From the NCBI RefSeq assembly GCF_003334305.1, contig NZ_QOWS01000001.1: 64,000 bases of DNA. One strand, 5' to 3'. The translations under genes and the position numbers were made by a program. Source of the stretch: Escherichia coli. Lineage in GTDB: Bacteria; Pseudomonadota; Gammaproteobacteria; Enterobacterales; Enterobacteriaceae. Shown here piece after piece: positions 16,281 to 19,635 of the stretch. Within the stretch, counting starts at the first letter, position 1, and each line of letters opens with the position of its first letter. Below the pieces are notes generated by a model, which did no database searches, was not told the DNA's origin, and saw nothing but the letters and a program-made list of their open reading frames with translations.

Positions 16281-16940
16281 ATGAGCGAACAAATCACGTT
16301 TGCCACCAGCGATTTTGCCAGTAACCCGGAACCACGTTGCCCCTGCATTTTGCTGCTGGATGTTTCTGGCTCGATGAGCGGCAGACCTATTAATGAACTT
16401 AACGCCGGATTGGTGACCTTTCGTGATGAACTGCTTGCCGATCCGCTGGCTTTAAAAAGAGTGGAACTCGGCATTGTGACGTTCGGCCCGGTGCATGTGG
16501 AACAACCCTTTACCAGCGCCGCTAATTTTTTTCCGCCCATCCTGTTTGCCCAGGGCGATACACCAATGGGTGCGGCCATTACCAAAGCCCTGGATATGGT
16601 AGAGGAGCGGAAACGTGAGTATCGTGCAAATGGTATTTCGTATTATCGCCCGTGGATTTTCCTGATTACCGATGGTGCACCAACCGATGAGTGGCAGGCT
16701 GCAGCCAACAAAGTGTTTCGGGGGGAAGAAGATAAAAGGTTTGCTTTCTTTTCCATCGGTGTTCAGGGGGCGGATATGAAGACTCTGGCACAAATCAGCG
16801 TTCGTCAGCCTTTGCCTCTGCAAGGATTACAATTCCGTGAACTGTTTAGCTGGTTATCCAGTTCGCTGCGTTCGGTTTCCCGCTCCACGCCGGGAACGGA
16901 AGTTGTGCTGGAAGCGCCAAAAGGCTGGACGTCAGTGTGA
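16281..16940 (+). CDS. yegL: von Willebrand factor A (vWA) domain protein YegL
   Basis: 219 aa; MIDAS motif DxSxS present ([11 protein letters not shown]); AAGGAT RBS upstream. Confidence 0.9.
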
Positions 16941-17698
16941 GCTGGCGTCTGGTTTATGCATCCGCTGTTGGAACATCGCACATCAGCGCGGACTTGCCTT
17001 GCCAGGATGCCTGCCAGATGCAGGTTGCCTGGCTAAATGACCAGCAGCCATTACTGGTGATGTTCCTTGCTGATGGCGCAGGTAGCGTTTCGCAGGGAGG
17101 AGAAGGCGCGACGCTCGCCGTCAATGAAGCGATGGCTTATATGTCGCAAAAAGTGCAGGGTGGGGAATTGGGGCTTAATGATATCCTCGCCACGGATATT
17201 GTGCTGACCGTTCGTCAGCGACTTTTTGCCGAGGCGGAAGCCAAAGAATTAGCAGTTCGCGATTTTGCCTGCACGTTTCTGGGATTGATTTCATCGGCTA
17301 ATGGCACCTTGATTATGCAGATTGGCGATGGCGGCGTGGTGGTGGATTTTGGTCACGGTCTGCAATTGCCGCTTACGCCGATGGTGGGTGAATATGCCAA
17401 TATGACGCACTTCATTACCGATGAAGATGCCGTTTCCAGACTGGAAACTTTCACCAGCACTGAGCGTGTGCATAAAGTTGCAGCATTTACGGATGGTATC
17501 CAGCGACTGGCGTTAAATATGCTGGATAATTCTCCTCATGTACCTTTCTTTACCCCGTTTTTCAATGGACTGGCGTCAGCAACGCAGGAACAACTCGATT
17601 TATTACCTGAATTGTTAAAGCAGTTTTTGTCCAGCCCGGCGGTAAACGAGCGTACGGATGATGATAAAACGTTGGCACTGGCGCTGTGGTTACCATGA
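16937..17698 (+). CDS. yegK: PP2C-like serine/threonine protein phosphatase YegK
   Basis: 253 aa; GTG start overlapping yegL stop (GTGA); conserved Asp-rich segments (LADGAGS, QIGDGG) consistent with PP2C fold. Confidence 0.85.
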
Positions 17699-19635
17699 AA
17701 CCCACTTTATATACTGCTACTGGTGAGTGCGTTACGCCAGGCCGTGAACTGGGCAAAGGCGGTGAAGGCGCGGTTTATGATATCAATGAGTTTGTCGATA
17801 GCGTCGCCAAGATTTATCACACGCCGCCACCCGCCTTAAAACAGGACAAACTTGCCTTTATGGCTGCGACAGCTGACGCGCAATTGTTGAATTATGTCGC
17901 CTGGCCGCAGGCAACGCTTCACGGTGGACGAGGCGGAAAAGTTATCGGTTTTATGATGCCAAAAGTTTCTGGTAAAGAACCGATTCATATGATCTATAGC
18001 CCGGCACATCGTCGTCAACGTTACCCTCATTGCGCGTGGGATTTTCTACTCTATGTTGCGCGCAATATTGCTTCATCTTTTGCTACGGTTCACGAGCACG
18101 GGCACGTCGTGGGTGACGTAAACCAGAACAGTTTTATGGTAGGTCGCGACAGCAAAGTGGTACTGATTGATAGCGACTCCTTTCAGATTAACGCCAATGG
18201 CACACTGCATTTATGCGAAGTCGGCGTGTCGCATTTTACGCCGCCAGAGCTACAAACCTTGTCGTCATTTGTCGGCTTTGAACGCACAGAAAATCACGAT
18301 AATTTTGGCCTTGCGTTGCTGATTTTTCACGTCTTGTTTGGTGGCCGGCATCCTTATTCTGGTGTGCCGCTTATCTCTGATGCGGGTAATGCGCTGGAGA
18401 CGGATATTACCCATTTCCGTTATGCCTACGCGTCAGATAATCAGCGACGTGGTTTAAAACCGCCGCCACGATCGATTCCGCTATCGATGTTACCGGGCGA
18501 TGTTGAAGCCATGTTTCAGCAGGCATTCACGGAAAGTGGCGTGGCAACCGGGCGTCCGACGGCTAAAGCGTGGGTAGCGGCACTTGATTCTCTGCGCCAA
18601 CAGTTAAAGAAATGTCCCGTTTCGGCAATGCATGTTTATCCCGCTCATTTGACCGACTGCCCGTGGTGTGCGCTGGATAATCAAGGCGTTATCTATTTTA
18701 TTGATCTCGGCGAAGAGGTCATTACCACCGGCGGTGATTTTGTGCTGGCGAAAGTCTGGGCGATGGTGATGGCGTCAGTAGCACCGCCAGCATTGCAATT
18801 GCCATTACCCGATCATTTCCAACCGACTGGCAGGCCGCTTCCTTTAGGCCTGTTACGGCGCGAATACATCATTCTGATTGAGATCGCACTGTCAGCGTTA
18901 TCGCTGTTGCTTTGCGGCCTTCAGGCAGAACCGCGTTATATTATTTTGGTTCCTGTGCTGTCGGCTATCTGGATTATTGGCAGTCTGACAAGCAAAGCGT
19001 ACAAAGCAGAAATCCAGCAACGCCGTGAGGCATTTAATCGCGCGAAAATGGACTATGAGCATTTAGTCAGCCAGATCCAACAGTTGGGCGGGCTGGAAGG
19101 TTTTATCGCCAAACGGGCGATGCTCGAAAAAATGAAGGACGAAATTCTCGGGTTACCGGAAGAAGAGAAACGCGCTCTGGCAGCACTTCATGACACTGCA
19201 AGGGAACGGCAGAAGCAGAAGTTTCTGGAGGGATTTTTTATTGATGTTGCCTCTATTCCCGGCGTTGGCCCTGCGCGTAAAGCGGCGTTACGGTCTTTTG
19301 GTATTGAAACAGCCGCAGATGTTACCCGTCGTGGCGTTAAGCAAGTGAAAGGGTTTGGCGACCATCTGACCCAGGCGGTTATCGACTGGAAAGCGAGCTG
19401 TGAACGCCGTTTTGTGTTCAGGCCGAATGAAGCGATAACGCCAGCAGACAGACAAGCGGTAATGGCGAAAATGACCGCCAAACGACATCGGCTGGAATCG
19501 ACGTTGACTGTCGGCGCGACAGAGTTGCAGCGATTCCGCCTTCATGCTCCAGCACGGACCATGCCGTTGATGGAACCTTTACGTCAGGCGGCAGAAAAAC
19601 TGGCTCAGGCGCAGGCAGATTTAAGCCGCTGCTGA
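17695..19635 (+). CDS. yegI: Atypical protein kinase-like protein YegI (kinase-like N-domain, 2 TM helices, C-terminal HhH-like region)
   Basis: ATG at 17695 overlaps yegK stop (ATGA); alternative GTG at 17686. Glycine-rich loop LGKGGEGAVY, VAKIY lysine motif, hydrophobic segments near residues 390-440, IPGVGPARKAALRSFGIETAADV HhH-like motif. Confidence 0.85.
   Translation: MKPTLYTATGECVTPGRELGKGGEGAVYDINEFVDSVAKIYHTPPPALKQDKLAFMAATADAQLLNYVAWPQATLHGGRGGKVIGFMMPKVSGKEPIHMIYSPAHRRQRYPHCAWDFLLYVARNIASSFATVHEHGHVVGDVNQNSFMVGRDSKVVLIDSDSFQINANGTLHLCEVGVSHFTPPELQTLSSFVGFERTENHDNFGLALLIFHVLFGGRHPYSGVPLISDAGNALETDITHFRYAYASDNQRRGLKPPPRSIPLSMLPGDVEAMFQQAFTESGVATGRPTAKAWVAALDSLRQQLKKCPVSAMHVYPAHLTDCPWCALDNQGVIYFIDLGEEVITTGGDFVLAKVWAMVMASVAPPALQLPLPDHFQPTGRPLPLGLLRREYIILIEIALSALSLLLCGLQAEPRYIILVPVLSAIWIIGSLTSKAYKAEIQQRREAFNRAKMDYEHLVSQIQQLGGLEGFIAKRAMLEKMKDEILGLPEEEKRALAALHDTARERQKQKFLEGFFIDVASIPGVGPARKAALRSFGIETAADVTRRGVKQVKGFGDHLTQAVIDWKASCERRFVFRPNEAITPADRQAVMAKMTAKRHRLESTLTVGATELQRFRLHAPARTMPLMEPLRQAAEKLAQAQADLSRC

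Follow-up and report, generated by a model that had tools for sequence, protein, structure and literature searches.

Operons that join a von Willebrand factor A (vWA) protein bearing a metal ion-dependent adhesion site (MIDAS), a PP2C phosphatase and a kinase fused to a zinc ribbon have been described as TerY-P triads (Anantharaman, Iyer and Aravind 2012; in PMC11090510, PMC4978471), and stand-alone triads with vWA, PP2C and kinase components confer resistance to T7-like phages and to Autographiviridae (PMC7699616, PMC11090510, 10.1101/2022.08.12.503731). We analyzed a 64,000-nucleotide stretch of an Escherichia coli genome (contig NZ_QOWS01000001.1 of assembly GCF_003334305.1; hereafter the window) that carries the genes yegL, yegK (also named pphC) and yegI. 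By architecture, yegL-pphC-yegI is a TerY-P-class phospho-switch with a distinctive kinase tail, and comparison of homologous loci showed that the triad is a tightly joined unit inherited together across bacteria and some archaea. We propose that it works as a self-contained three-gene Ser/Thr phospho-switch that is triggered by DNA, acts through YegL and directs its output against invading DNA. Taken as a whole, this explanation has in our judgment about an even chance of being right: its biochemical core is near certain, and its trigger, substrate and defense output are hypotheses.

The locus, its enzymology and its descriptive content are already known. PphC is an active, Mn-dependent PP2C-type phosphatase that removes phosphate from YegI (Rajagopalan and Dworkin, 10.1101/303594), and YegI is an active, Mn-preferring Ser/Thr kinase that depends on K39, D141, the DSD loop and S162 and whose autophosphorylation follows second-order kinetics (10.1101/819920). 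PhoA-LacZ analysis established YegI as a two-pass inner-membrane protein with cytoplasmic N and C termini (10.1101/819920; the two studies are cited in PMC13232886 as J Bacteriol 2018 and FEBS Lett 2020). The first-pass annotation of the window, made by a model from the sequence alone, had described a TerY-P-type triad predicted computationally; the domain architecture bears out the type, but the triad is more than a computational prediction since its enzyme activities and topology have been published.

Compared with the TerY-P triad, YegLKI has the same vWA/MIDAS, PP2C and kinase-zinc ribbon content in one operon and a similarly patchy, horizontally spread distribution, often near restriction or DNA-processing genes. 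However, YegI adds a transmembrane hairpin, a predicted coiled-coil stalk and a predicted helix-hairpin-helix (HhH) tip after the zinc ribbon, and in Escherichia YegLKI is a species-wide core locus. TerY-P copies also sit in Type II/III-A CoCoNuT and H. pylori McrBC-type islands, whereas the YegLKI cassette usually stands alone. Two anti-phage TerY-P systems, that of Gao et al. 2020 against T7-like phages and the P. aeruginosa variant reported by Costa et al. against Autographiviridae, have the same gene content in a stand-alone three-gene form, and the tail of the Gao-type kinase is, like that of YegI, a predicted nucleic-acid binder, but it ends in an oligonucleotide/oligosaccharide-binding (OB) fold (PMC11090510), while YegI ends in an all-helical region of membrane anchor, predicted coiled coil and putative HhH. 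Protein sequences of the P. aeruginosa variant were sought in the supplements of the paper, which yielded co-occurrence tables only. M. tuberculosis PknB-PstP and B. subtilis PrkC-PrpC likewise pair a Hanks-type kinase with a co-operonic PP2C phosphatase and are activated by autophosphorylation, and PknA and PknB are the closest solved structures to the YegI kinase. Unlike PknB and PrkC, YegI has no extracellular PASTA or other sensor and keeps both ends in the cytoplasm, its kinase has VGD and DSD instead of HRD and DFG, and a vWA protein is an obligatory third partner.

The three genes are co-directional on the plus strand and span 16281-19635, as read from the open reading frame (ORF) list and the raw sequence:

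16281-16940, plus strand: yegL, vWA protein of 219 aa
16937-17698, plus strand: yegK (pphC), PP2C-family Ser/Thr phosphatase of 253 aa with a GTG start
17695-19635, plus strand: yegI, atypical Hanks-type kinase of 646 aa counted from the ATG
16937-16940, plus strand: stop/start overlap of yegL and yegK, GTGA, 4 nt, read from the raw sequence
17695-17698, plus strand: stop/start overlap of yegK and yegI, ATGA, 4 nt, the arrangement without yegJ, read from the raw sequence

The co-directional triad with its overlaps at 16937 (GTGA) and 17695 (ATGA) had been reported by the first-pass annotation and is found as described in both the ORF list and the sequence. These tight junctions are not a matter of chance, since overlap recurs across 63 homologous loci from many phyla (start codons picked heuristically): in 41 of the 63 the vWA and PP2C genes overlap by 4 nt, and between the PP2C and kinase genes the median gap is +2 nt. 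Strain A7 of E. coli matches the window at 100% identity, and its RefSeq annotation lists the genes as yegL, pphC and 'protein kinase YegI'. K-12-like and some other lineages carry an insertion of ~735 bp with yegJ between pphC and yegI; the ATGA overlap in B and pathogenic strains and the yegJ insertion in K-12 strains were noted before (10.1101/819920). In the E. coli genome that we label L006, yegJ is a 462-nt gene on the opposite strand at 3751-4212. It is absent from the window (17695-17698), which therefore has the uninterrupted gene arrangement, as in homologs of other taxa.

Outside Escherichia, full-length YegI homologs are 30-62% identical and patchily distributed, occurring in Klebsiella spallanzanii, many Burkholderiales, Pseudomonas, Dyella, Chromatium, Thiotrichales, Desulfobacterota, many Planctomycetota, Hyphomicrobiales, a cyanobacterium, Lentisphaerae and Methanoregula archaea, and an exhaustive search at E≤1e-30 placed 3228 clusters (50% identity) in the family. 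The vWA, PP2C and kinase genes are adjacent and in the same order in ~72 of the 80 loci fetched, most of the remainder being cut by contig ends, and all-against-all clustering of the flanking ORFs found no other neighbor conserved across taxa. Solo kinases occur at two Thiotrichales loci (L065 and L066), which hold neither a vWA nor a PP2C gene; these YegI-like kinases of 581-596 aa (L065 5875-7620; L066 9992-11782) lie downstream of an 840-871-aa ORF that is glucan-phosphorylase-like as judged from N-terminal sequence alone. Homologs are present on 82 plasmid records, among them Pseudomonas megaplasmids and plasmids of Agrobacterium and Rhizobium, and 46 of the 82 are predicted to be conjugative; carriage by phages is essentially nil, with one weak partial match in 50,697 phage records. 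Complete triads are found in the Methanoregula assemblies L053, L055, L068 and L073, with YegL ~60% identical to that of E. coli, and these archaeal triads imply inter-domain transfer if the metagenome binning is right. The cassette spreads horizontally, and in Escherichia it is now a fixed core locus.

We found the triad (3.36 kb, at least 80% coverage, one chromosomal place) in 5403 of 5426 complete E. coli genomes. Its GC content of 0.48-0.54 is host-like, as in the flanks, and composition thus gives no support for recent transfer into E. coli. Between Escherichia lineages, at a synonymous divergence (dS) of ~0.25-0.75, the ratio of nonsynonymous to synonymous divergence (dN/dS) ranged from 0.03 to 0.16 over the three genes (0.03-0.065 for yegL, 0.11-0.15 for yegK and 0.11-0.16 for yegI), indicating that all three are under purifying selection. 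A fixed core site, host-like GC and strong purifying selection are also what favors a different reading, in which the triad is a housekeeping or stress-signaling module and the E. coli copy a domesticated switch that tunes host proteins, with metal or oxyanion stress, envelope or stationary-phase signals, or endogenous DNA damage as possible cues. Such a role would suit the first proposal made for TerY-P triads, a metal-sensing phospho-switch (as cited in PMC11090510), and the presence of alkA as a neighbor in E. coli and of umuDC-like genes or lexA in two other loci. It fits poorly with a patchy, inter-domain distribution that includes plasmid carriage, with the lack of a conserved neighbor or regulon partner, of a periplasmic sensor domain and of a LexA box upstream, and with the recurrence of defense or restriction genes beside the cassette in several unrelated taxa, and we hold it to be possible but on balance unlikely.

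The same divergence data bear on whether the operon might be a cryptic remnant, acquired long ago and now silent and functionless in E. coli. In favor of a remnant, no recognizable promoter was found, transcription has been reported as below detection or very weak (10.1101/303594; PMC13232886), and the operon is split by yegJ in K-12-like lineages and by an insertion sequence (IS) element in some E. coli strains. Against it, sustained purifying selection on all three genes, ORFs that are intact in nearly all complete genomes and the in vitro activity of both enzymes (10.1101/303594, 10.1101/819920) make a functionless remnant highly improbable.

YegL is the most conserved of the three partners, with 54-78% identity versus 30-60% for YegI and 32-65% for YegK. 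It matched the Pfam families VWA (1.7e-9) and VWA_2 (5.8e-7), and its MIDAS is complete (D27, S29, S31, T94 and D131) and includes the DVSGS motif from which the first-pass annotation had read an intact site, a reading that the sequence, the VWA match and conservation all support. A conserved N-terminal motif (F-x2-N-x-E-x-R) and a conserved Ser-rich C-terminal tail (W191-L-S193-x-S195...S200-x-S202-x-P204-G205...P-x-G-W216) complete the pattern, and across 68 homologs from outside Escherichia the residues of MIDAS, N-terminal motif and tail show conservation of at least 97%. YegK matched PP2C_2 (3.5e-50) and has the conserved acidic residues D24, D46, D131, D186 and D241-243. No solved structures of close relatives were found for YegL, YegK or YegI.

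YegI falls into the following parts:

17695-18594, plus strand: kinase domain, atypical Hanks-type Ser/Thr, aa 1-300
18601-18684, plus strand: Zn-ribbon-like module, aa 303-330, with C307, H313 and C322-P-W-C325
18859-19002, plus strand: transmembrane (TM) hairpin of two helices, aa 389-436, from hydropathy and the AlphaFold2 (AF2) model
19003-19227, plus strand: predicted ascending stalk arm of an antiparallel coiled coil, aa 437-511, running on from the second TM helix
19237-19434, plus strand: putative two-HhH tip region, aa 515-580, from Pfam, profile-profile comparison and AF2
19441-19629, plus strand: predicted descending stalk arm, aa 583-645, a single helix of ~63 residues back towards the membrane

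The kinase motifs are G20-x-G-G-x-G25, K39, the catalytic D141 in VGD, and D159-S-D-S162 replacing DFG. Both GKGGEGAVY and VAKIY are present, and the Gly-rich loop, the VAKIY lysine and the non-canonical catalytic and DFG regions picked out by the first-pass annotation are all in place, with VGD for HRD and DSD for DFG. In our 54-sequence YegI alignment G20/G22/G23, K39, D141, D159, D161 and S162 are invariant, and the residues found to be essential by published experiment are exactly family-invariant ones (K39, D141, D161, S162). Of the published autophosphorylation sites, S602 is not conserved in the family and S644 is only partly so, consistent with both being dispensable (10.1101/819920). 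Among the domains for which a Pfam search had been proposed, VWA and PP2C were matched, HHH_5 was matched weakly (see below), and Pkinase was not matched by E. coli YegI itself but was matched at E≤1e-3 by 38 of the 54 family members (best 4e-12). A similarity to the kinase fold was found at other levels: the family profile matched TTK (1e-5) and PknE (4e-4) in the PDB, and the kinase part of the full-length AF2 model (mean predicted local distance difference test score, pLDDT, 89.5; low-confidence linker at aa 340-347) resembled PknA/PknB and many eukaryotic kinases (Foldseek E ~7e-8, probability 1.00, target template-modeling score 0.65-0.72). Following the kinase domain, C307, H313, C322, W324 and C325 are invariant in the 54 homologs, and aa 303-330 are modeled as two short strands and a helix, zinc-knuckle-like. 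This segment matches a predicted small zinc ribbon and would fit the 'STK fused to a zinc ribbon' of TerY-P kinases (PMC11090510).

The two hydrophobic helices noticed in the first reading of the sequence agree with hydropathy (Kyte-Doolittle peaks at ~aa 391-410 and 414-434), with AF2 (TM helices at 389-409 and from 415 onwards) and with the published topology. Beyond them, AF2 modeled the C-terminal domain (aa 436-646) with confidence (pLDDT 93.4) as all-helical, with an antiparallel coiled-coil stalk ~70 residues long. In the domain model the ascending arm consists of helices 2-30, 32-50, 52-65 and 67-77, and in the full-length model of helices 415-465, 467-485 and 487-511; the descending arm is a single helix at 148-210 and 583-645, respectively. 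At the tip, the secondary structure of aa 515-580 fits two successive helix-hairpin-helix units, with the hairpins I-P-G523-V-G525 and V-K-G553-F-G555 of the h-x-G-h-G pattern each lying between helices, and the tail motifs quoted in the first-pass annotation, IPGVGPARKAALRSFGIETAADV, are present in YegI. The most conserved segment of the tip, L532-x-S-x-G-I-E-T-A-x-D542, joins the hairpins and is followed by W565.

Profile comparisons gave this putative module moderate backing. Pfam HHH_5 matched aa 515-550 weakly (independent E-value 0.0025) and matched the same place at E≤0.1 in 14 of the 54 homologs, the hairpin glycines are retained in 35-39 of the 54, and the best non-coiled-coil matches of the family profile in the PDB were the HhH of L32e, REV1 and Pol IV (E 0.15-0.8). 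Because hhalign against single HhH proteins (RuvA, AlkA, UmuC-like polymerase) was marginal (P = 0.011-0.019; controls 0.05-0.38), we built an alignment of RuvA domain II (102 sequences; E. coli RuvA sequence checked against PDB 1BDX), against which the YegI sub-alignment scored P = 1.2e-4 (probability 54%), with aa 546-564 on RuvA HhH motif 1, while seven controls (reversed, column-shuffled or other-region) gave P = 0.008-0.5. RuvA domain II (PDB 1BDX/1CUK; HHH_5) likewise has two helix-flanked h-x-G-h-G hairpins ~30 residues apart; in YegI, however, the similarity is weak, the connecting segment is the most conserved part, the module sits on the stalk of a membrane kinase and DNA binding is only predicted. 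The tip is a probable (HhH)2 module, and source databases name YegI homologs 'DNA-binding helix-hairpin-helix protein with protein kinase domain'. The first-pass claim of an HhH-like tail accordingly holds for the motifs and the AF2 pattern and is weakened in two respects: the confident tail model found no HhH match in fold searches, which returned coiled-coil or helical-hairpin proteins only (SMC arms, dynein stalk) and left the module unconfirmed, and the glycines are lost in one branch.

That branch is made up of Planctomycete homologs (L070-L088, e.g. L077 9989-12055), which have lost the GxG glycines of both HhH motifs. The same proteins have an extra hydrophobic helix at the extreme C-terminus, directly after the descending arm, as expected if the end of the stalk lies at the membrane, and their loci have a convergent GspE/PilB-like ATPase gene downstream in what is apparently lineage-specific synteny. 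Five further relatives (P0122, P0167, P0174, P0215 and P0222) have only the kinase plus zinc ribbon (aa 1-385) in common with YegI; what follows are different, long C-terminal regions (700-1158 aa), and some of these show a weak likeness to SMC-like coiled coils of the LmuB/JetC models in PADLOC. From these differing tails the sensor tail of YegI appears to be exchangeable.

On an axis separate from the other rivals, the stalk and HhH-like tip could be a device for dimerization or protein docking, with HhH pairing of the ERCC1-XPF type, rather than a nucleic-acid binder, and the tail would then position kinase protomers or recruit YegL and PphC. Second-order autophosphorylation implies that YegI oligomerizes (10.1101/819920), the most conserved residues (L532, S534, G536, A540, D542 and W565) lie between or after the hairpins and not in them, one large branch does without the GxG glycines and the sequence support for HhH is modest, all of which would suit docking. 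Yet the h-x-G-h-G pattern of both hairpins is kept in ~70% of the family, each of the independent weak matches is to a true DNA-binding HhH (RuvA, Pol IV, REV1, L32e), nucleic-acid binding is likewise predicted for the other kinase tails of relatives (zinc ribbon, OB fold; PMC11090510), and overproduced YegI promotes DNA damage (10.1101/354589). We therefore look on a pure docking role with some doubt.

In the DNA-triggered switch that we favor, PphC would hold YegI dephosphorylated and off in the resting state. Nucleic acid that meets the HhH tips near the inner membrane, for which entering phage or plasmid DNA and damaged or stalled chromosomal DNA are candidates, would cluster YegI molecules, and clustering would permit trans-autophosphorylation on S162 to give the active kinase. 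The next step would be phosphorylation of YegL by active YegI, with the Ser-rich C-terminal tail as the likeliest site and further targets possible, after which the YegL MIDAS may bind an acidic or phosphorylated ligand and so bring about the output. That output would most likely disturb DNA transactions and thereby protect the cell from invading DNA. Given its near silence in the laboratory, the E. coli operon would have to be induced in order to act.

An output against invading DNA draws support from the phage protection published for triads with these domains and from the surroundings of the cassette in other taxa. Defense or restriction genes lie within ~10 kb in L002, L003, L004, L008, L091, L092, L093 and L036, and defense genes flank the triad in about half of the annotated contexts. 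The neighbors in Piscinibacter are an SLFN-like helicase, MazG-like, McrA-like, BrxR and JetB; in Chromobacterium, AbiH, a KAP NTPase and a Tn7-like element; in Klebsiella, GmrSD, SymE and a type I restriction-modification (RM) system; on a metagenome contig, type I RM and Mrr; and on a Rhizobium plasmid, Gabija-like genes, HxsABC and DUF262. Another contig has an Mrr-like nuclease directly downstream of the triad, yet another has an AbiJ-like gene, and in Pseudomonas alcaligenes (L036 6131-8185) GajA (PADLOC E 3e-215) lies 57 nt upstream on the opposite strand. Overproduction of either YegL or YegI was scored as DNA-damage-promoting (10.1101/354589).

Some loci showed further features. On the Rhizobium rhizogenes plasmid (L091 4392-7494) the triad directly follows the His-Xaa-Ser (HxsABC) radical-SAM cluster and stands between a Gabija-like endonuclease/UvrD pair and a gene for a DUF262 protein, and two radical-SAM genes lie near the triad in L009. 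On a 585-kb Pseudomonas fulva megaplasmid (L090 4617-6315 and 14721-16931) the triad adjoins umuD/umuC-like genes. A second protein, of 737 aa and annotated as 'helix-hairpin-helix domain-containing', is encoded ~4 kb downstream, close to a protein with a TraM-recognition domain that may be a conjugative coupling protein.

Weighing against a DNA-triggered defense switch, a clear defense protein was only 1 of the 20 nearest large neighbors in an unbiased sample of both sides of 10 diverse loci; the remaining neighbors were housekeeping (NtrC, TrmL, ComEC, PrpE, RNase R-like, histidine kinase, PHB depolymerase) or unknown, and one metagenome locus (L007) has a purely housekeeping context. A core locus at a fixed site with host-like GC, as in E. 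coli, is unusual for defense cassettes, and laboratory strains that carry the triad are fully sensitive to common phages. To these points must be added those raised above on the tip, namely fold searches without an HhH match, a Planctomycete branch without hairpin glycines and HhH support that is moderate, and the DNA-damage phenotype arises from overproduction and could be indirect. No phage experiments on the E. coli operon were found in the literature searched.

Comparison with known defense models points in the same direction. Against the TerY-P models of PADLOC-DB v2.0.0, YegK had no match even at E≤10, YegL matched PDLC02224 TerY at E = 0.03 over 45 residues only, and YegI and 10 relatives matched no TerY-P model, their matches being confined to models of generic kinases or coiled coils. 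Through the kinase core, the PADLOC families matched by YegI and its relatives were solely single-gene kinase defense systems (PD-T4-6/Stk2-type and the kinase domains of MkoA and PglW), and these matches are weak (E 1e-4 to 1e-8 over ~100-200 residues), with no shared accessory domains or partners. With no model match and a different predicted kinase tail, YegLKI fails membership of the PADLOC/Gao-type defense family as judged from sequence and structure models. The nucleic-acid-linked signaling or defense function suggested by the first-pass annotation thus finds backing in the defense neighbors of several taxa and none in the TerY-P models or in the neighbor sample. The association with defense genes is mixed and, as raw neighbor counts, no more than suggestive; a DNA-sensing or defense role for the E. 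coli triad is a plausible hypothesis.

Upstream of yegL lie the following features:

15235-16134, upstream of yegL: three tandem Ibs toxin/Sib antitoxin-RNA repeats
15329-15471, 15657-15799 and 15986-16134, minus strand: SIB_RNA (Rfam)
16135-16280, plus strand: leader from the last Sib/Ibs repeat to yegL, the presumed promoter region of the operon

A consensus scan found no sigma-70-like site in the leader (16135-16280), and no LexA box occurs in the window by either a strict or a core pattern, on which ground we rejected SOS control. No inverted repeat was found in the leader, and the promoter, terminator and inverted-repeat scans of it were uninformative. A leader without a recognizable sigma-70-like site, LexA box or inverted repeat fits the published expression of the operon, which is undetectable or very low (10.1101/303594; 10.1101/819920; PMC13232886), with weak expression of the locus confirmed by a 2026 paper (PMC13232886). 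In long-term evolution lines, yegI is mutated recurrently, as Rajagopalan and Dworkin noted.

In E. coli, mdtA and the Ibs/Sib repeats lie to one side of the triad and yegD, alkA and dgcE to the other, with yegD downstream of yegI and convergent; its placement between type I toxin-antitoxin repeats and yegD, as first annotated, is therefore correct, with three Ibs/Sib repeats upstream and yegD downstream. Genome L006 has only two Ibs/Sib repeats at the same site, where the window has three, so their copy number varies between strains. We considered yegD (Hsp70/actin-like) as a fourth component and rejected it, since it flanks the triad in four Escherichia loci only, and likewise the Ibs/Sib array, since no non-triad gene clusters with the cassette across taxa. 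Adjacency to Ibs/Sib and yegD is Escherichia-specific and outside the system. Also rejected as a conserved effector was a pair formed by a small ORF and an SNase nuclease, seen in L002 and L009 only: there, a 69-70-aa ORF and a staphylococcal-nuclease-domain gene (L002, Piscinibacter, 5719-6474; L009, metagenome contig, 7700-8501) immediately precede the vWA gene, on its strand, and may be an accessory effector of a subset of cassettes.

Few Ser/Thr kinase-phosphatase pairs are known in E. coli, and YegI and PphC form one of them. What is new here is the distribution of the cassette and its integrity, the purifying selection, the constraint on YegL, the model of a stalk and tip, the mismatch with PADLOC and the survey of neighbors. 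The analysis names prime candidates: YegL as substrate or output, the stalk-mounted HhH tip as sensor, and invading or damaged DNA as signal. The yegJ-free arrangement, as in the window, is the form suited to functional study. We tentatively suggest, as a possibility that we regard as improbable so far, that YegLKI-type triads form a large, cross-phylum family of membrane-anchored, nucleic-acid-sensing systems against phages and plasmids that defense-finder models have missed, with the HhH tip as sensor and YegL as a phospho-regulated effector. If the defense reading is wrong, the triad is still an unusually mobile and strongly conserved signaling cassette; if it is true, nearly every E. coli core genome would hold a silent, inducible copy of a widespread defense family.

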